Notes under the pieces: model-generated
Databases searched by the model: none
The model's input: only the letters and a program-made list of their open reading frames with translations
Told to the model about the DNA's origin: nothing
Shown here: piece after piece, positions 19,402-56,822 of the stretch
How positions within the stretch are numbered: the first letter of the stretch is position 1
How the letters are laid out: each line of letters begins with the position of its first letter
Translations under genes and position numbers: made by a program
Source of the DNA: Candidatus Bathyarchaeota archaeon
GTDB lineage: Archaea; Thermoproteota; Bathyarchaeia; 40CM-2-53-6; RBG-13-38-9
DNA length: 64,000 bases
Reading direction: 5' to 3'
Assembly (NCBI GenBank): GCA_963807605.1
Contig: CAWECG010000001.1
Location: 535,410-599,409 of the forward strand

Positions 19402-19751
19402 CTAGGTCATCTGGAAAAAACAGAGTCTCTCTACAGATGAGCTGGATATAATGTAGCCTCCATCTGAAGACATTGTGGCAGTGTATCCGGAATAGTTCCC
19501 CACAAAATTGCCTTGCTTATCAAATACGGTTATTGCGGAAACGATAGCACCGGATTTCACCTCTTTTATGATTTGTATCATGACATTGCCAGTATCTGCT
19601 GAGAATGAGAAGGGAAGCGCCACTCCCCCCTTGTTCCACAACATCTTTCCCGCTTTATCGTAGAAGCACAGTTGGGAAGACCATCCATGATAATAGCTCG
19701 CGTTCGTGCCTACGGCGGCTATGTAGCTCCCGTTCACGGTCGAGGCTGCTT
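19402..19751 (-). pseudogene. C-terminal fragment of a beta-propeller (WD40/PQQ-like) protein
   Basis: NGSYIAAVG, FYDKAGKMLW and MSSDGGYI blade-like repeats; coding signal begins at the (GC)n run at 19752. Confidence 0.5.
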
Positions 19752-19985
19752 GCGCGCGAGCAAAGATCCTGAAGTACAATCAAGAGATAGGATACAAAGC
19801 ATCTGATCTTTCACATGTCTTTGATTACACGCAGCCACATCGATCGTGGGCGTGGACTAGAAGATCATTGAGGTAATGGCTTTGATACAGATAAGACTGC
19901 CCAAACATGCGCGTACCCCACCTAACATGTAACAAAAACAGTCATGGAATATTTTGACTCTTCAGAGCAACTTCGTAGATTGTAT

Positions 19986-30645: not shown

Positions 30646-31067
30646 CAAGCACATCCTAATTTGGACATTTTTTATTCATAATCTTAGACCCTAGACATCC
30701 TAAGATTCAAAACTTTAGAACCTAAGCGAATTGGCCTCCTGAATGTAAAGTCTGAATATTCCGACACCCTGTGAATCCCTACTTTGGGCTGTTTTTCAGC
30801 CTGTCCCCAACCTTCTTTCTGCTCTTTCTTAGCTGAAACTCTGCTTGGTTGACAGTTCAAAACTATAGTCTAAAGCTATCCTGGCCCACCAAAATTCTTG
30901 AAGTATGCCATATGCCCCTGCACCAAGTCCTGGTACAACGATGCCCATCATGACGCGCGCCAGCCCCGTCCGATCATGGAATTGGAAACGATGTGTGGTC
31001 GTGCTAGCCAAGATTTGTATTGGCTATTCCTTTAATACGGTCGTCGCAAATTTCATCACGAGACAAG

Positions 31068-31958
31068 ATGAGATTAGAAGACATTAAGAGAGTGGGTGTG
31101 CTCGGATGCGGATTAATGGGGAGCGGCATTGCTCAAGTATGTGCGCAGAATGGATACTATGTGTACGTACGCGAATTGAGTTCTGACCTTTTAGCGCGTG
31201 GGCTAGGTTCGATTAAGGAATCAATCTACAAGCATATGGTGGAAAAAGGAAAAATTAGGAGCGAGCAGGCTGAGGCCATACTATCCAGAATTAAAGGAAC
31301 TGCCGATATGGCCGAAGCTGTTATGAATGTCGATATCGTCATAGAGACGACCCCGGAAGATTTGGAGACGAAGAAAGAAGTCTTTGCGGAGGTGGAGAAA
31401 TTTTCGCCCCACCATACCATCTTCGCCTCAAATACCTCATCACTAATGATTACTGAGATCGCTTCAGCCATCAAGCGAAAAGAGAAACTCATAGGTATGC
31501 ACTGGTTCTATCCACCACAAGTCATGAAATTAGTGGAAGTAACCAGGGGTATGCTGACCTCTGACGAGACCTATAACATAATCAACGAGTTTTCAGTTAA
31601 GCTAGGAAAAGTTCCGGTTACTTCGAGAGACTCTCCAGGCTTCGTAGTCGTGAGGCTGCTGGCCGGATTTATGGCTGATGCCATACGATGCGCTGAGGCG
31701 GGAGTAATGAGCCTAGAAGATATCGATAAAGCCTGCAAGCTGGGACTTAACCATCCTATGGGACCATTCGAACTTATGGACTTTACAGGGCTAGATACAT
31801 ATTTGAGAATCTATGAGTATATCTACAAGAAAACAGGGGACCCAAGATTTCATCCACCATTGCTTCTGGAAAAAATGGTTGCCAGCGGACATCTGGGAAG
31901 AAAAAGCGGCAGAGGCTTCTATCATTACGATTCAGAACGGCCCACCAACGAGAAATAA
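31068..31958 (+). CDS. hbd: 3-hydroxybutyryl/3-hydroxyacyl-CoA dehydrogenase
   Basis: GCGLMGSGIAQ, ASNTSS, GMHWFYP, HPMGPFEL, GRKSGRGFY. Confidence 0.9.
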   Translation: MRLEDIKRVGVLGCGLMGSGIAQVCAQNGYYVYVRELSSDLLARGLGSIKESIYKHMVEKGKIRSEQAEAILSRIKGTADMAEAVMNVDIVIETTPEDLETKKEVFAEVEKFSPHHTIFASNTSSLMITEIASAIKRKEKLIGMHWFYPPQVMKLVEVTRGMLTSDETYNIINEFSVKLGKVPVTSRDSPGFVVVRLLAGFMADAIRCAEAGVMSLEDIDKACKLGLNHPMGPFELMDFTGLDTYLRIYEYIYKKTGDPRFHPPLLLEKMVASGHLGRKSGRGFYHYDSERPTNEK

Positions 31959-32912: not shown

Positions 32913-33602
32913 CCTAGCTGGTGAGCACACACAATCAATACCTAACGGTTCAGAGTATCCCTACGAGAGTCAGAATTCCCAGTACCATGAATATGATAGC
33001 TGACACTCTTTTGACTTTGTCAATTGAAACTCGCCTGCTTAATTGGTTCGCTAAAACTATGCTCAACCCACTGACAAAGGCTAATGCCGACAATGCGCCC
33101 AGAAATACAGCCAGTGGCTCCACAAAACGCGCGGCAAGGGCGATTGTCACAATTTGGGTTTTGTCGCCAAGCTCTGTCAATATTACCATTGCTGATGAAG
33201 CGAGAAAGGGGTTTTTCACATTGGGTTGTTTGAGACCTGTTCTAACATTCGCCTTGAGCATAATCAACCCAATGACTAGGAACATCAAACCAGACGCGAA
33301 CTTTAGTATCGAAAATGGAATCATCGTTAGAAGCGCTTGTCCTATTAGAACCGCCGAGCCTTCCATAATAGTGAAACCAAGAATTATGCCTAGGAAGATC
33401 GAAAGGGGTTTCTTAGTGCTTGCGGCCAGCGTAATCATGCCGAGCTGGGTTTTGTCACCAAATTCAGCCATCGCGATAGACAGCAAAGATATTACGAAAG
33501 CCTCAACTATTCGATCTAAGATTTTTATCTCCCAACCCTGGGGATTTCTGAAGTTGTTCTACTCCCTTAAGAATCTACACCCTGGCTGGTGAGCACACAC
33601 AA
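32913..33602 (+). repeat. 22-bp direct repeat CCT(A/G)GCTGGTGAGCACACACAA flanking the UPF0016 gene
   Basis: Copies at 32913-32934 and 33581-33602, one mismatch. Confidence 0.85.
32950..33486 (-). CDS. TMEM165/GDT1 (UPF0016) Mn2+/Ca2+ transporter
   Basis: Two E-x-GDKTQ motifs. Confidence 0.92.
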   Translation of the reverse strand: MLSIAMAEFGDKTQLGMITLAASTKKPLSIFLGIILGFTIMEGSAVLIGQALLTMIPFSILKFASGLMFLVIGLIMLKANVRTGLKQPNVKNPFLASSAMVILTELGDKTQIVTIALAARFVEPLAVFLGALSALAFVSGLSIVLANQLSRRVSIDKVKRVSAIIFMVLGILTLVGIL

Positions 33603-33664
33603 AAAAAATAACCTGCTTAGCGCGCGCTAATAATCTTATAAACGCAATGCAACCATAGCATATT

Positions 33665-33923: not shown

Positions 33924-34312
33924 TTACTCGAGGAGCCGCCAGACAAGTGCGGCGATGAGTCCTCCAATGATAGGGGCGACCCAGAATAACCAGAGCTGGC
34001 TCAAGGCGACACTCCCAACTACGACTGCTGGACCCAGGCTTCTAGCCGGATTCACAGACGTGCCCGTTACCGGAATCCCGACGAGGTGGATGAGGACAAG
34101 ACTCAGTCCAATGGAAATACCCGCGAAACCCTTGGGAGCTCTCTCCCCAGTCGATCCATAGATAACAAGCAAAAAGATGAATGTCAAAATGACTTCCGTG
34201 GCGAATCCGGAAATCATAGAGAATCCGCCTGGCGAGGCCTGATCGTATCCGTTCTGACCTAACCCATTAACAGCGAGACTGTATCCGGGATTTCCAACGG
34301 CAACGCCATAAA
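33924..34312 (-). pseudogene. aqpZ: Aquaporin Z, C-terminal half only
   Basis: ALYGVAVGNPGY...GQNGY..SPGGFSM...GTSVNPARS..QLWLFWVAP; first NPA half absent; cut at the 12-bp (GC)n run 34313-34324. Confidence 0.9.
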
Positions 34313-34378
34313 GCGCGCGCGCGCTAACCTAATGGTACACAAAAAAATAAGAGAGGCCAGAAGCGTGCGCTAATTGTG

Positions 34379-34573
34379 CTAAGCTGGTTTGATAGCGCTC
34401 TGTAACTTGGACATTAAGTCCGGGGAAAGGGCAGCCATTCCATGAGTCTTAGCGTGTTCCATCCCTTGTTTAAGTAGATCGTCTTTGGTCTCCGCATTCA
34501 ACTCAGTGGTGCACCCTGATATTGGACACTTCAATTTGAAAGCCACAGTAGTCACCTCGCTAATAATAACCAC
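34379..34573 (-). CDS. DUF1059 small metal-binding protein
   Basis: LKCPISGC...AETKDDL...EHAKTH. Confidence 0.75.
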   Translation of the reverse strand: MVIISEVTTVAFKLKCPISGCTTELNAETKDDLLKQGMEHAKTHGMAALSPDLMSKLQSAIKPA

Positions 34574-34798
34574 TTATGCAGCGTATATAGGATGCCTCTA
34601 GTTGGCTGATACATGCTACGATTCGGGGTACGTCCAAAGGACTTCTGTTAGTTCTTCGCTCAACTGAGCCTCGTACGCCATCAGGTTTCTGAGGGCTTTG
34701 ACTATTGAGATTCCCTTGAAGGGCGCGCGAATTTGAATTGCCGTTCTAGTGGACGCGTCAACTCTGCTTAGTCCGTACAAATATCCGATGGACGTTGA

Positions 34799-36267
34799 CT
34801 ATTCTTCTTGGACAATCCACGCTTTCGGGATATTCTTCGCCTTGTAGAATTGCCATTTGATGTGACGAATGATATTCGCTAGAAATACTTCTCCTTGATG
34901 GTAAGTTCTCTCCAGAACCGCGTCTCTGGACAGAAAGACTTCCTTCAACTCTTGTTGTTCTTTCTTCGGCGCGAAGAACACGTATATGGGAACACCAATC
35001 GCGAACAGAATGGCAGAGGTTAGGATCTGTTGGCCATTTACTTGTGTCATCAAGAAGAGCGAAAAGATTACACCCAACGCTGGGATTACTGTGACTTGCC
35101 AAGTTCTGGTTCGTGCATTTGTATGCCTCCTTTCAAGCAGAAAGGCGGATATGCACGTTGCTAAATAAGCGAAGGAGAGCAGAAACACCGAGCTGTTGAT
35201 TAGCGCAACAAGCTGTTCGTAATGCTTGCAACAAAAGCCGTTGCGCACAGAACAATTATGCCTATGTACGGTGTGTGATATGATCTCTGCAATCGGCTGA
35301 ATGCTCTAGGTAGCAGTCCGTCGATTGACATTGCAAAGGCTAGCCTAGACGTCCCAATACTCCCGGATTCGTCTGCCCCGAGAATGGAGACAAGTGCACC
35401 TATCGTCAATATCAGTCCTCCAAGCATTGCCGCGGTCGACGAAACGCCCAACACGTTCGCAGCAGCAACGGCCAACGGTGCTGATGACGAGGCCAGAGTC
35501 CGTTGATCTACCACCCCGATCACAACAACATTAGTAACAATATAGAACACTGCGACGATCAGCATGCCCAAAATAAGAGCCTTAGGTAGAGTCTTCCTCG
35601 GATGTTGAATTTCATCCGCTGGCAGACTGGAAAGCTCAAAACCAGCATAGGCCCAGAAAATCAGCACTAACGTTTGTCCTACGTTCGAAAGATCACCGTG
35701 CAGGAACGGTTGGAAGTGCGCAGCCGCTAAACTGGGCTGCAATCCCATGAATACCACGCCTAAACATATGAGAAGCAACAGAGGACCCAGTTTCACAATA
35801 GTCAAGAAGTCATTGAACTTCCCGGCCGTCTTGACTCCGTAAATGTTGGTCAAAATGATCGTAACAATAAACGCTCCTTTCAGTAGCAATTGAGATAGCG
35901 GATCCAAGTTCGGATCCAATGCAAGAAAATATTGAGTGAAGGCGACTGGAAATACTGCTAATGAAAACCATTCAGCCAAAAGAAGGGCCCAGCCTACCAT
36001 GAAACCCCCAAATGACCCTGCCACCTCTTTCGTGTAAGCATAGGAGCCGCCGACCCTGGGTAGGTAAGTGGCGCAGTAAGCGAAACATAGGGCGATCACA
36101 ATTGCAATGATTCCCCCAACGATCCAAATCAGAAGGGAAGCAGGTCCAAGAAGTCTAGCACTAAGTGCGGGGACCACAAAGATATCCGCACCAATAGCTG
36201 AACCAATCACGAGACTTGTAGTGTCAAACGTGTTCAGCTGCCGGCGTAGAGTCACTTTCCTAGTCAA
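34799..36267 (-). pseudogene. APC family amino acid permease, frameshifted near 35210
   Basis: GSAIGADIF, GGSYAY, FWAYAGFE; C-terminus LVALINSSV.. in another frame (one base missing). Confidence 0.85.
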
Positions 36268-36322
36268 ATCAACTCACGCAGCAGGATCAACACCAAAGAT
36301 CCACCATAGAGAAGAGCGTATG

Positions 36323-36617
36323 CTACCTGTTCGTGGGATGCCTTACCGCGCTGCTGGTTCCGGTTTGACACTGGTTCCGTGCTAATGAACACAGGGGGTC
36401 CCAGAAAGACAAGACTGCGGGCACCGTATCAAGGATTTTCAGGAGTTCTGGAGGCAGATACTCTTTCCTCACAATAACCTCGTAGAAATATTCGTCGAAC
36501 CATTCATCCATCAAGTACATGTATCCTTGATCCCCCTATCGCGGGTCCCCAGCCGTTTTCAACTCGCCATTTCCTTGGCTTGCCATGCTCATCGAGGTCA
36601 ACCCTCGTAATCACCAT
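36323..36617 (-). pseudogene. pepC: Aminopeptidase C/bleomycin hydrolase (peptidase C1B) C-terminal fragment
   Basis: AMVITRVDLDEHGKPRKWRVENGWG..(frameshift)DQGYMYLMDEWFDEY..WDPLCSLA; begins at (GC)n run 36618-36626, just after the catalytic His position. Confidence 0.85.
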
Positions 36618-36772
36618 CGCGCGCGCTTTCCTGTGTAGTTTTCGATTGGGTACGTTTTCCTGTCGGTGCTATTGGCTTAGGTGTTTAGGCGCTAATTGCT
36701 TAAGCCCTTTCGAGTTGTGCGCCCTCAGCCGTGCTACTTGCGCTTGCTGAGTTAAACAACCAAACCTCTATA

Positions 36773-37336
36773 CTATTTTTTTTCATTCAATAGGATTTCG
36801 ACAGTCCACTTTGCAGTTTTCCCCACAACATTTTGGCACTTGTCTCCCTTTGCCTTGTTGAATTCTTCATGTTCCTTGGGGTCCCAGAGGTTGAAAGACC
36901 TTCCAATAATTTTCGTCTGGACATCTTTGCAGATGGCGCTTCCAAACTCTTCTATGAACCGGTCATGGAGCTTCTTGCCCAGTACCATGCCCTTCTCTCT
37001 TTCTCCAAGATTCGAGAAATCTGCCCTGCCATACCTTTGGCTTATCGCTGCCACTCCGCCTGACAAGGCGCCACATGTGCCATCTCCTGCACGGACCAAT
37101 CCTCCAGCTAGACCGTCCATCGTCTTAAAGATCTCACGGCTTCGACCTCCCAAGACTTCGCTCACAGCTGCAAAGGCACATTGTGAGCAACCTCCATGAG
37201 CCTTGGTATAGTTGAAACCCAAATCATAAGCACGTTTCATCAAGTCTTCTTTGCTTGATTTCACCAAATATGTCACCAGACCACTTTGCATTCGCACTGT
37301 TTGGCCAACGGTAGCATTAGCAATCTCTAAAAACAT
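36773..37336 (-). CDS. C_GCAxxG_C_C family redox-active protein (true start probably downstream)
   Basis: GCSQ, TCGALSGG, FGSAIC, KC. Confidence 0.85.
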   Translation of the reverse strand: MFLEIANATVGQTVRMQSGLVTYLVKSSKEDLMKRAYDLGFNYTKAHGGCSQCAFAAVSEVLGGRSREIFKTMDGLAGGLVRAGDGTCGALSGGVAAISQRYGRADFSNLGEREKGMVLGKKLHDRFIEEFGSAICKDVQTKIIGRSFNLWDPKEHEEFNKAKGDKCQNVVGKTAKWTVEILLNEKK

Positions 37337-37632
37337 TTTGGATAGTGTGTACGCGTGGATACCTGCGGAATGTGAAGGTCAAGGATTTGACTCTTGGGCG
37401 CCTGACGCGCACGTCATTTATATGGGTAATCAGTCAGAGGATAGAGCGCGGGCTATCACCGCATCGACGATAGAACAAACCTAAGCCAGATAATCGAGTT
37501 TCGTCGTCGCTCACGAAAAGAGTTGCACACACAATTTCGTTACACTAGGAAAAAGAACCGCAGGTCTGGGATGCGGATCCAAGACATACGCGCGCGAAAC
37601 GTTAAGTAAGCATCAGGAGCACGTTTCTAGAG

Positions 37633-49906: not shown

Positions 49907-50056
49907 TCAGAAACGCGCGCGCGTGATCGCAAAAACCATTACGGGAACAACATTCCACGTCGCTCCGAACTTCTGTATCAGCAGAATCGCCGTCACCACT
50001 GAAATAGATACGGTAACGGCGGCCACGATAAGCAATCTAGTAACGGGACTTATCAT
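49907..50056 (-). pseudogene. Short membrane ORF/fragment ending at a (GC)n run
   Basis: MISPVTRLLIVAAVTVSISVVTAILLIQKFGATWNVVPVMVFAITRARF*. Confidence 0.4.
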
Positions 50057-52036: not shown

Positions 52037-52082
52037 ACTCTAATCGTCTAGACTTTGCCTAATAATGCTTCGGATAGCGCGC

Positions 52083-53187
52083 TGGGTTGTCCCGATATTA
52101 GCGTTTTCATGTTAGGTTTGTCCAGTGTGTTATGCTTCTGGTTTTGGTGGGTTGTTTGGTGTTGTGTGAGGCTTCTATGGTGTAGAGTAGGCATAGTATG
52201 CAGTAGCTGGTGTGGATGGTGATGTTTTCTAAGCCTCTTGTTTTGTGATTGTTGAGGGTGAGGTGTTCTTTGAGTGATGCGAAGACGAGCTCTATGGTTG
52301 AGCGTTTCTTGTAGATGCGTTTGAGGTTTTCTGGGCCGTGTGTTTTGAAGTCGCTGGTTACTCTGAGGATGTTTTGTCTTTCAGGGTTCTGGTTGGCTGG
52401 GTAGGGTATCGCGGTCTTGATTTTGTGTCTTTTAGCGGTCTCTCTGAGTCTGTTGCTGGAGTATTGACTGTCAGCGGTTAGCTGTCGGATTCTGATTGCT
52501 GTGGTTTTAACTGTCATTTTGAGGAGTGGTATGCTGAGTTTCTTCTCGTTAGTGTTTGCTGGTGAGATGAGGAAGGCTAGGGGTGTCCCTGTGTCTGCAT
52601 CGACTGTGAGGTGTAGTTTGTAACCTAGGCTGTATGTGCGGTAGGCTCTTCCTACACGGGCTTCAGGGTCGCTGAAGCCTGTTCTATTGTTTATGTTGCG
52701 TCTGCTGTAGGCTTTGATGAAGGTAGCGTCCATAGCGACTATCCTGGGTTTTGCTATGTGTTTCTTCAGCAACTTCTTGACCTGTTTGTTTACTATGCGT
52801 CTTAGTCTTCTTGCGCCTAGCCGCTGGTTGAATCTTGAGAGTACCGTCCTACCGTACGCTGGCTCCTCATATCTTATGCCGCATATGTCACGTAGCCTCT
52901 CATCATGACATAAGTGGCGTTCAAGATCACGCAGACTGCTCATTCTCAGGTAGCGTCTGGCGAGGTGTGCCTTGAAGAGTCCTAAGGGGTTTCGTGGAGG
53001 TTTACCTGGACCGTCTTGATGATAGCAGCTAACAATGAGGCGTTCAACAAACGATAAATCCAGATTACTCAGCAGTGACTCCAGAGTCTCGTACCCTTCT
53101 ATCTGGAATCGCCTCCAAGTAGGAGGGTGTGGGGCTCAAACCATATGGATCTTTCCGTGTCAACTCAAAGAATATCGGGACAAGCCC
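52083..53187 (-). mobile_element. Insertion sequence (IS1182/IS5-like DDE)
   Basis: TIR GG(G/C)TTGTCCCGATATT at 52084-52099 and 53171-53186; flanks are themselves inverted repeats ending in GCGCGC. Confidence 0.88.
52107..53135 (-). CDS. DDE transposase (start region apparently frameshifted)
   Basis: GPGKPP N-terminal motif, MDATFI, GYKLH, TADSQY, YKKRSTIELVF; frame stays open upstream of the annotated M at 52943 to a TGA near 53137. Confidence 0.85.
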   Translation of the reverse strand, partial: APHPPTWRRFQIEGYETLESLLSNLDLSFVERLIVSCYHQDGPGKPPRNPLGLFKAHLARRYLRMSSLRDLERHLCHDERLRDICGIRYEEPAYGRTVLSRFNQRLGARRLRRIVNKQVKKLLKKHIAKPRIVAMDATFIKAYSRRNINNRTGFSDPEARVGRAYRTYSLGYKLHLTVDADTGTPLAFLISPANTNEKKLSIPLLKMTVKTTAIRIRQLTADSQYSSNRLRETAKRHKIKTAIPYPANQNPERQNILRVTSDFKTHGPENLKRIYKKRSTIELVFASLKEHLTLNNHKTRGLENITIHTSYCILCLLYTIEASHNTKQPTKTRSITHWTNLT

Positions 53188-53406
53188 GCGCGCTATCCGA
53201 ATCTCTAAGCCTTCTAGGTAGAATCTCTATTGCGGCCTGTTCCGGTTCCTCAATAGGAATTACAACTATCTTAAGGCTCAAATCTTGAGTCCGACCAGTA
53301 AGTAGAAAGACATAATGTCCAACAAATGTATTAACGCGCGCGCTATAGATCTCCTTGATAAAATAATCTGGTTCATCATTTGAAAGCTGCCTTTTGTGCA
53401 CGTTAA

Positions 53407-54208: not shown

Positions 54209-55160
54209 TCATCCCCGTTTCACTTGGTCGAGAGTGCATTCGTGTGGAGTCTTATCAGCTTTCAGCCCCCGGAATCTTGGCATCCGTAACTTGTCGTCTT
54301 TGGTGACTGTCTGATAGGCGACTTCGCATACAAGCTTCGGCTTTAGCCAGACAACTTCCTGAGGGACTTCAACCTCATGAAGAGTCTCCTTCCGGACCTC
54401 CAGTCCTTTGAAGATATTTTTCAGAAGGTCCGTGTCGCCCTGGGAGAAGCCTGTCCCCACTTTGCCCACGTAGACCGGTCTGTCGTCATCGTATAATCCC
54501 AGGATCAGCGCTCCGAAGGTCTCCTCTCTAATGCCTTCCCCAGTGGTATATCCGAAGATCACACAGTCGCAGGATGTCACCTTTTTTATCTTCAGCCAAT
54601 TGCCACTGCGTCTTCCGGGCTCGTAGGGACTGTCTCTCCTCTTCGCCATTATCCCCTCCAGAGCCCTTCGAACAGATGCCCTGTAGTATTTTTTCCCTTC
54701 TTCCTCTATGAAGAGTGAAGCTAGGACGTGTCTGCCCTCCTTGAGGGAATCCTTCAGGATCATCTTCCTGTCAATTAAGGGAAGGTTGATGAGAGTCTTC
54801 CGGTCCTTCTCCAGTATGTCGAAGACAACATATGTTGCAGGATATTTGCGCGACATGTATTCGATATCGGTTGGCGAAGTAGTCTTACCCCTTTCCAGGA
54901 GGGTCTGGAAGTCTGGTCGCCCACGCCTCAGTGACGACTATTTCGCCGTCGAGGACAGCTCCCCTTGTCAGATTCTTCAGTTCTTCAAGTTCTGGAAAAT
55001 TGATCTTTAGCTCCTTATCATTCCTGCTCTTTATGTTCAGCCTTCGATCGATGTAGCTGATAGCTCTGAACCCATCCCACTTGATCTCGAAGATCCAGCC
55101 CTTCGAGTTGAAGGGCGCGTCTGCGGTCTGGGCGAGCATCGGCTTATAGTGCCGGTTCAT
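54209..55160 (-). pseudogene. ligD: NHEJ ATP-dependent DNA ligase (LigD ligase domain), +1 frameshift near 54933
   Basis: EIKWDG (motif I), LDGEIV, then GRPDFQ, VFDIL, EGIMAK, WLKIK, GKVGTG, LRMPRF in the next frame. Confidence 0.9.
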
Positions 55161-55957
55161 TTCTTCTTGATCTGTTTGAGAGTCTCTTGGAGAGCTACCA
55201 TAAGCTCCTTAGCCTCTTCCTTTACGGGCTTCTCCTCGACGACGATGGCCTCTCCCTTCATCTTTTTCTGGACGAGTGACTCGACTTTCTCTCTGTAGCG
55301 GTCTCTGTACAGTGTTATATCGAATTCCCCTGAGAGATCGGCGATAATCTTCTTAGTGAGCTCCAGCTCCTCCTTATTCGGCTCCTTGAGCCCCCTGAGC
55401 TCTTTGTTCTCAGCTGGATCAGCAACCTCGTATTGATAACGAAGAGCCGTCAGAACCAAGGCGTTCTTGTAGGGGTGGACTATAACCGGGTACTCCTTTG
55501 TCCTGAGAGTAACCCTTCCGATTCCGGCTTTGCCCATTGCCTGTAAGGCAGTCAGAAGGAGGCTGTAGGCTTCCTCACTCTTGTCCGGTATCAGAAGGTA
55601 CGACCTCTCGAAGTATATCGGATTAACCGAGAGGTAATCGAAGAACTTGTCTATGCGGATCTTCTGGGTTGATTCTGGCTTGGCCGCCTCAAGTTCCTTC
55701 TGCTTGAAGATGATAAACTTGTTCTTGCTTATCGGGTATCCTTTCTCAACATCCTCCCAAGGAACGATCTTATTCTCTTTGATGCAGACTTTTTCGTATC
55801 TTAGTGGCTGACCGTCCTTCTTATGCAGAAATCTGAAATGGAGACTGTGATCGAATATCATGGGGTAGAGCTTGATCGGAACATTAACTAGGCCTATTGT
55901 GATACTTCCGCTCCACATGGGTCTCTTAGAGACTTGGCCTCTTATTTTCTTGGCCAT
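55157..55957 (-). CDS. ku: Prokaryotic Ku DNA end-binding protein
   Basis: RPMWSGSITIGLVNVPIKLY, KGY, YFERSYLL, YRDRY, LMVALQETL. Confidence 0.95.
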   Translation of the reverse strand: MAKKIRGQVSKRPMWSGSITIGLVNVPIKLYPMIFDHSLHFRFLHKKDGQPLRYEKVCIKENKIVPWEDVEKGYPISKNKFIIFKQKELEAAKPESTQKIRIDKFFDYLSVNPIYFERSYLLIPDKSEEAYSLLLTALQAMGKAGIGRVTLRTKEYPVIVHPYKNALVLTALRYQYEVADPAENKELRGLKEPNKEELELTKKIIADLSGEFDITLYRDRYREKVESLVQKKMKGEAIVVEEKPVKEEAKELMVALQETLKQIKKK

Positions 55958-55958
55958 T

Positions 55959-56822
55959 TCAACTCACTTTTAGTTTCTGTTTCTCTTCGAACAACCCTTC
56001 CCAAGGGTCCTTCCGAATCTTGACTACACTGAATATATTGAACGCGTCGGGGTCTAATACTTTCTTAATATTCTTCCATTCAAAGGGCGTTGAGACAGTG
56101 GCCTTGGGAGTGGCTCTCAAGCTGTACGCGCATATCATGGTTCTACCGTGAGAGTTCTGCAGATAATCTATGAAGACGGTTCCTGGCTCTCTTGATCTGG
56201 AGAACTCTGAGACGATGATCTCCGATTCCTTCTCGAGACTCTTGCCAATTTGATGCGCAAATTCTCTGACCTGTCGGAAGGAGTATCCTTTGGTTAGAGG
56301 GATGACAACGTGTAGTCCCTTCTTCCCCGAGGTTTTGATGTAGGATCTCAGGCCTAATGTGTCCAGCTCCTCCTTCAGCAGAAGAGCTACATCAACGGCG
56401 TCGGAAAATTTGGCCGGTGGCTCAGGATCGATATCGATTAAGACTAGGTCGGGGCTCTCGAAGGAATCCATTCCGGAGAGAGTGACATGGATCTCCAAGG
56501 CAGCCAGGTTAGCCAGCCAGATGAGCGTATCGACGTCGTTGCAGATTATGTAGTGCAGGTCTCGCTGCGCTGTCTCGGAATATCTCTTGAAGGTTTTCAC
56601 CCAAGACGGGGTTCCAACAGGAACATCTTTCTCATAGAATCCCTCCTTATCCACTCCATCAGGAAATCTTGTCAGAACCGCTGGTCGCATAGCTAACAGG
56701 TCCAGCATCCTCGGGGCTATTCTGATATAATACTCGATAACCTGTCGCTTTGTGACTCTCAGCTCTGGATAGAGCAACTTGTCCAGGTTGGTGAACTCAA
56801 CCTTAGTGAGCCTTTTGGACAA
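55959..56822 (-). CDS. NHEJ primase-polymerase (LigD Pol domain, stand-alone)
   Basis: TNLDKLLYP, RFPDG, DIDP, KTSGKKGLHV, VFIDYLQN, AYSLRA, VSTP. Confidence 0.95.
   Translation of the reverse strand: MSKRLTKVEFTNLDKLLYPELRVTKRQVIEYYIRIAPRMLDLLAMRPAVLTRFPDGVDKEGFYEKDVPVGTPSWVKTFKRYSETAQRDLHYIICNDVDTLIWLANLAALEIHVTLSGMDSFESPDLVLIDIDPEPPAKFSDAVDVALLLKEELDTLGLRSYIKTSGKKGLHVVIPLTKGYSFRQVREFAHQIGKSLEKESEIIVSEFSRSREPGTVFIDYLQNSHGRTMICAYSLRATPKATVSTPFEWKNIKKVLDPDAFNIFSVVKIRKDPWEGLFEEKQKLKVS

Follow-up and report, generated by a model that had tools for sequence, protein, structure and literature searches.

Comparison of a 64,000-nucleotide stretch of archaeal DNA (hereafter the window; C1:535410-599409) with the rest of its 2.65 Mb genome in five contigs (G000) and with related genomes makes it rather probable that some archaea possess a primase-based, telomerase-like ribonucleoprotein, which would write programmable self-complementary tails on broken DNA, allow any two ends to be joined and so bring about deletions and the capture of pieces of foreign genes at hundreds of sites in each genome. 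The candidate components are a stand-alone archaeo-eukaryotic primase (AEP) and a structured RNA at the 3' end of its gene, and the candidate products are short alternating G/C runs, here called patches. The genome was assigned to the Bathyarchaeia by its relatives and homologs.

The window contains 36 alternating G/C runs of at least 6 bp. Genome-wide, (GC)n runs of at least 8 bp number 320 versus 16 (AT)n runs of the same minimum length, and the run lengths peak at 8 (198 8-mers versus 127 7-mers), so the (GC)n runs are not a product of chance. In ~78% of the runs an A stands directly 5' and a T directly 3' of the repeat, and only 31 of the 320 lie wholly inside open reading frames (ORFs) of at least 150 amino acids, although such ORFs make up 73% of the genome; ~90% of the runs thus fall outside long ORFs. 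The repeats (GATC)n, (TGCA)n and (AGCT)n occur in this genome at background level, and no junction is marked by any of them. Runs of (GC)n are common to most of the family to which the genome belongs (119 in G001, 5-63 in others and 0-4 in some) and rare in the rest of the order. Patches decay mostly by C>T changes at CpG (51 versus 28 and 22 for other changes, counted genome-wide; compare the X7 joint at 37498-37596), hinting at CpG methylation or a plain transition bias, and TG/CA versions of patches are seen in paralog pairs. Another motif, CACACAC with an A-tract after it (CTGGTGAGCAC core; window 33580-33610 and elsewhere), occurs more often in the genome than expected and is frequently close to patches or to att-like ends.

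The patches are almost certainly new sequence written at joints. For 97 run ends with a testable paralog elsewhere in the genome, homology stopped at the run in 65 and read through it in 9, versus 6-7 stops and 53-64 read-throughs at shifted control positions, which bears out the view of an earlier note on this DNA that the run is a mechanistic scar at a deletion or capture junction and not a regulatory site. That note had the run "created or used" at the junction, with a donor carrying GCGC or GC at the site. At the 65 stop junctions the parent shares no base with the run in 34 cases and at most two in 51, and the run must therefore have been written at the joint; the expectation about the donor is mostly wrong, and it is creation that stands, on the evidence of the parents without a run and of a newly sealed deletion in a sister strain. 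In two paralog pairs ~6 bp have been swapped for a run of 9-10 bp with both flanks intact, and in one a 252-bp deletion has been replaced by 8 bp.

The runs are palindromic, over-represented and mostly intergenic, as might suit pre-existing motifs (regulatory elements, HIP1-like sequences or Z-DNA fragile sites) at which the DNA breaks; this reading, or one in which the runs are assembly joins, is nevertheless highly improbable. The unbroken parents lack the runs, which decay and are not conserved. HIP1 of cyanobacteria is a GC-rich palindromic octamer that is over-represented, conserved between genomes and present also in coding regions (PMC5861425), whereas the patches arise anew at joints, differ in length, decay and in 90% of cases lie outside long ORFs, and are not conserved at orthologous sites. 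Assembly joins were rejected on general grounds: runs are present at their own joints in independent assemblies and in strain and Logan contigs, although no listed contig spans the two exact joints of the window.

Within the window, the earlier note described the aqpZ frame as intact up to the run at 34313-34324 with nothing aquaporin-like beyond, and this was borne out. Compared with the intact archaeal orthologue L009 (78% identical in amino acids), 37 of 59 nucleotides match on the gene side, 3 of 12 within the run and 15 of 48 past it; intact orthologues extend upstream through TM3, and the N-terminal half is absent from the whole G000 genome. A close donor at useful identity was not found among 40 relatives, the nearest reaching 78% in amino acids. 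The bases flanking this patch are those predicted by a GCGCUA template of the RNA described below. In the sister strains X1 and X2 the stretch 34371-36626, which extends to the pepC patch, is skipped or replaced.

The pepC fragment, as had also been noted, begins directly after the catalytic His position at the run 36618-36626. An intact paralog 62 kb away (C1:509.5-511 kb) encodes T-H-A-M where the window has A-R-A-M, and the pepC contigs of other strains diverge from the window at 36621 on the pepC side, strain contigs on the other side diverging at 36627. Because the Ala codon lies inside the run, three to four of its bases may be donor-derived. In the C3 copy of the adjoining 820-bp segment, homology begins exactly at 36627, the first base past the patch; at the patch position that copy has no GC and continues into tRNA-adjacent sequence. 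An intact pepC-permease donor was not found in 20 relatives. The fragment carries an extra base near 36532; this shift and the one in the permease at 35207, both relative to strain contigs, result either from degeneration of the captured segment or from errors in long reads.

Other sites in the window behave similarly. The short membrane ORF at 49914, which lies on the minus strand, does break at a run as the note had claimed, and its paralog reads on for 17 more codons where the window enters the run and stops. For the fragment at 19402-19758 no parent was found in Pfam, in a search for longer homologs or in the Atlas, a weak WD40/beta-propeller lead being the sole trace. Neither end of the 804 bp lost in X1 and X2 carries a run in the window, and that deletion is a fresh event sealed by a new run. 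Coordinates of these features, and of the AEP and RNA loci discussed below, are collected in the table.

Table. Features of the window, with the AEP and RNA loci of the same genome (window positions unless a contig is named)
Feature	Coordinates	Strand	Remark
Orphan fragment, frame opening at 7-bp run 19752-19758	19402..19758	-	
804 bp deleted in sister strains X1/X2 (31050 to 31855)	31051..31854	.	Replaced by 17-base filler with 12-bp (CG)n run
aqpZ 3' half (from end of TM3 through the stop codon; contains second NPA; lacks a start)	33924..34313	-	Pfam MIP 119-222
12-bp (GC)n patch at aqpZ break	34313..34324	.	Flanks TA (minus strand), A (plus strand)
DUF1059 small protein, inside segment between aqpZ and pepC patches	34379..34573	-	
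APC amino-acid permease, between the two patches, split by 1-base shift near 35207	34799..36267	-	
pepC (bleomycin hydrolase-type) 3' fragment, first residue Ala after catalytic His position	36323..36620	-	Peptidase_C1_2 match from position 362
9-bp (GC)n patch joining pepC fragment to unrelated segment	36618..36626	.	At least 5 bases without source in either parent
820-bp segment (C_GCAxxG_C_C gene)	36627..37446	.	98% identical to C3:578311-577492
One-mismatch patch, far end of 820-bp segment	37446..37453	.	Absent from both parents
Short membrane ORF cut at 10-bp patch 49914-49923	49907..50056	-	Paralog at C1:351 kb continues
DDE_Tnp_1 insertion sequence in centre of older 8-bp patch, 4-bp duplication	52076..53195	-	
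LigD Prim-Pol, Ku and ATP-dependent ligase, one operon	54209-56822	-	
Stand-alone AEP, outside window	C3:73133-72237		
RNA copy 1, over AEP 3' end	C3:72372-72274		
RNA copy 2, behind broken AEP	C1:380346-380246		

At least 14 insertion sequence (IS) copies of three DDE families sit in (GC)n runs, one of them in the window, as would be expected if the patches were footprints or target sites of IS5/IS4-like DDE elements and the deletions came from transposition. Each insertion, however, duplicates the central 4 bp of a pre-existing run of 7-10 bp, so the elements exploit patches and do not make them; DDE_Tnp_1 copies occupy patch centres in the window (52076-53195) and at C1:359516-360652 and C1:343573-344712. 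The uninterrupted junction parents, moreover, lack a target sequence (at most two shared bases in 51 of 65), and IS elements leave unexplained the (GATC)n, (AGCT)n and (TGCA)n patches that follow the RNA template in other genomes. An IS origin of the patches is accordingly very improbable. DDE_Tnp_1 elements appear to use repair scars as safe landing sites.

The enzyme that we propose as the maker of the patches is a stand-alone AEP, whereas the replicative PriS of the genome lies separately at C3:1.005 Mb; no PriL is found near the stand-alone gene. Its family comprises ~265-residue proteins (194 homologs) in which the predicted catalytic residues D98, D100, H156 and D207 are invariant, and it carries the hallmarks of the AEP superfamily, namely motifs I (DxD), II (SGxxGFH) and III (D) and the PriS fold. 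The structural model (pLDDT 88) has this fold, with best PDB matches to 1g71, 9f28 and 1zt2 at 13-22% identity, and the sequence matches DNA_primase_S and not LigD_Prim-Pol. No RVT_1 reverse transcriptase was found in the genome. We fetched 105 AEP loci through an alignment query, a locus scan with a single protein having returned none.

A conserved element of ~100 nt, a putative RNA, overlaps the 3' end of the AEP gene in 53 distinct loci. Its predicted parts are a hairpin, two GAUGA-type motifs and a stem ending in a 3-bp hairpin, the 8-nt loop of which pairs with the 5' end to form a pseudoknot; a variable single-stranded stretch, the putative template, precedes an A-tract. Its GA-tandem motifs are reminiscent of kink-turns, which makes L7Ae a candidate partner. 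The alignment indicates that the RNA structure is conserved: in the four helices 90% of cells pair, versus 42-51% in slid controls, and 18 of 23 pairs have changed on both sides, far above the same kind of control. Rfam covariance models gave no match at E≤1 over eight loci. Copies of the RNA were searched for with a covariance model, sequence patterns being too strict or too loose.

Judged from sequence comparison, the putative template and the patch co-vary across archaea, and the AEP-linked RNA very likely specifies the patch sequence. Repeats were counted in the DNA flanking each locus with the RNA itself masked. Loci with a GCGCU template have 119 (GC)4 observed versus 2.0 expected; the variant classes, resting on 1-3 loci each with kin that are not independent, give 8 (AGCT)2 versus 0.2 for the AGCUAGCU locus, 4 (TGCA)2 versus 0.1 for the GCAUGC locus and 8 (GATC)2 versus 0.4 for the CGAUC locus. 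In the genome of the CGAUC class (G401) the 10-bp (GATC)n pattern occurs 344 times, compared with 4, 7, 9 and 25 times in four other genomes; a (GATC)n patch also seals the second, broken copy of the AEP in G401. The base before the run varies with the template as well: 107 of 182 ends have A where the template reads GCGCUA, and 47 of 88 have T where it reads GCGCAA/GCAU. The templates of G000 end in GCGCGUAA and GCGCUAA, the complements of which are the two commonest patch ends; TA abutting GC accounts for 152 and TA abutting CG for 75 of its 640 ends. G001 likewise carries both kinds of template. A blind prediction for G404 (the genome of locus L218), which has 80 (CTAG)n 10-mer matches and 18 GC-patch matches, went unconfirmed, since only an AEP scrap and no RNA were found there; for the CGGCCG template of G031 a single patch lies nearby, and the repeat is not in excess across the genome; and the predicted repeat was not seen for L298 and L231.

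One operon of the window also encodes LigD Prim-Pol, Ku and a ligase whose frame is interrupted near 54900 by a 1-base shift, either genuine or an assembly error. LigD polymerases are able to add bases and synapse ends (PMC4538821). This end-joining polymerase, or another host polymerase, might therefore write (GC)n without a template, the RNA loop then mirroring the scar. We consider this scarcely likely, since Ku is present in four genomes with 0-2 patches, whereas no other family member that was searched gave a match, among them 15 with as many as 119 patches, nor did 17 genomes of a second lineage; further, in every RNA the putative template falls in the same column, and with a length of frequently just 5-6 nt it is shorter than a patch. 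A LigD phosphoesterase domain and also a PriS-like AEP, the third in the genome, are encoded elsewhere, at C3:314.9 kb and 317 kb.

That AEP and RNA add palindromic tails through which broken ends anneal and are joined is, on the comparative evidence, a likely mechanism and the best explanation of the patches. The AEP would seat a broken DNA 3' end on the RNA beside the A-tract and copy the 5-8 nt template into DNA, resetting to add repeats as telomerase and DRT10 do. Two palindromic tails would then anneal (the minimum seen is 8 bp), and host enzymes would fill and ligate them, leaving a palindromic patch of 8-15 bp between non-homologous sequences. Such joining could seal deletions and stitch in foreign fragments, cutting aqpZ, pepC and the 49914 ORF. 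All five repeat classes are self-complementary, and since every template encodes such a repeat, any two tailed ends could anneal. We infer that the RNA is transcribed, that the AEP copies it into DNA, that the tails anneal and that the system serves break repair; end joining is probably its purpose.

The same enzyme and RNA might have another purpose, making repeat DNA, as DRT10 does with tandem repeats, for antiviral defence or for their own mobility, with the patches as by-products captured at breaks by host repair. The distribution of the AEP is patchy (9 of 401 genomes of the phylum), many copies are broken and the loci lie in variable regions, as this reading would have it. Against it, self-complementarity of all the template classes is required for joining and not for defence, no effector gene recurs beside the AEP, and the only recurring partner is radA, coupled to the AEP in 13 loci, with an overlap of the radA 3' end in a second lineage; a defence or mobility role is on this account unlikely. 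The overlap is seen in L199-L210, L239, L247, L250 and L258, and several radA-linked loci have a decayed RNA with a second, intact copy elsewhere in the genome.

Returning to end joining by AEP and RNA, family f42, the second lineage just mentioned, has 8-135 patches in its seven AEP-positive genomes and 0-21 in its ten AEP-negative ones. Patch-rich f42 genomes measure 2.0-2.3 Mb versus 0.6-1.8 Mb for patch-free ones, a comparison confounded by completeness; larger genomes would be in keeping with a system that promotes the accretion of DNA. Several members of the G000 family with 16-63 patches have no intact AEP or RNA, only AEP scraps ending at patches, and therefore loss or incomplete bins must be assumed.

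Telomerase, composed of TERT and telomerase RNA, adds repeats at internal breaks as well as at chromosome ends. By comparison, the AEP system shares with it a protein, a structured RNA with a pseudoknot and a short putative internal template, and repeats that would be added to DNA 3' ends. It differs in that the AEP has the PriS fold and no TERT-type reverse transcriptase domain, and in that its repeats are palindromic, 8-15 bp long and located at internal chromosomal joints, with no capping of linear chromosome ends. In the bacterial antiphage system DRT10, a protein-primed reverse transcriptase in a tripartite arrangement with SLATT, a noncoding RNA whose template loop is poorly conserved determines the tandem-repeat DNA that is made, and a change of template changes the product (10.1101/2025.10.16.682844). 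Dictation of repeat DNA by an RNA template is what we propose for the AEP RNA too; DRT10, however, combines a reverse transcriptase, the RNA and SLATT, whereas the AEP system has no reverse transcriptase and only radA as a recurring partner, and the DRT10 product is not described as filler of chromosomal junctions. Because its enzyme is not a reverse transcriptase, the AEP system is neither telomerase nor DRT10.

Nonhomologous end joining by the LigD polymerase domain with Ku, and microhomology-mediated joining by polymerase theta, resemble the proposed system in that an AEP-fold polymerase adds bases at breaks and promotes end annealing (PMC4538821). They use no dedicated RNA and no fixed sequence, whereas the AEP patches would be microhomology that is manufactured, not found, and patch counts do not follow Ku. 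The stand-alone AEP shares its fold and catalytic motifs with PriS and with PolpTN2, the AEP domain of which is capable of reverse transcription (PMC4538821, PMC5862659); PriS, at 13-22% identity, differs from the stand-alone AEP, which carries its own RNA and has no PriL nearby. A literature search of incomplete coverage found no description of an AEP-RNA patch system.

If our reading is true, this would be the first primase-polymerase known with its own template RNA, and telomerase-style repeat addition would have been invented independently. With ~265 amino acids, 100 nt of RNA and natural template variants, the system might serve as a programmable end-tailing tool. The patches provide a readable record of rearrangements. 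If the reading is true, they also mark a new way of joining ends, in which the system itself produces the microhomology, and may explain how breaks are rejoined and unrelated DNA is acquired in archaea that lack Ku.
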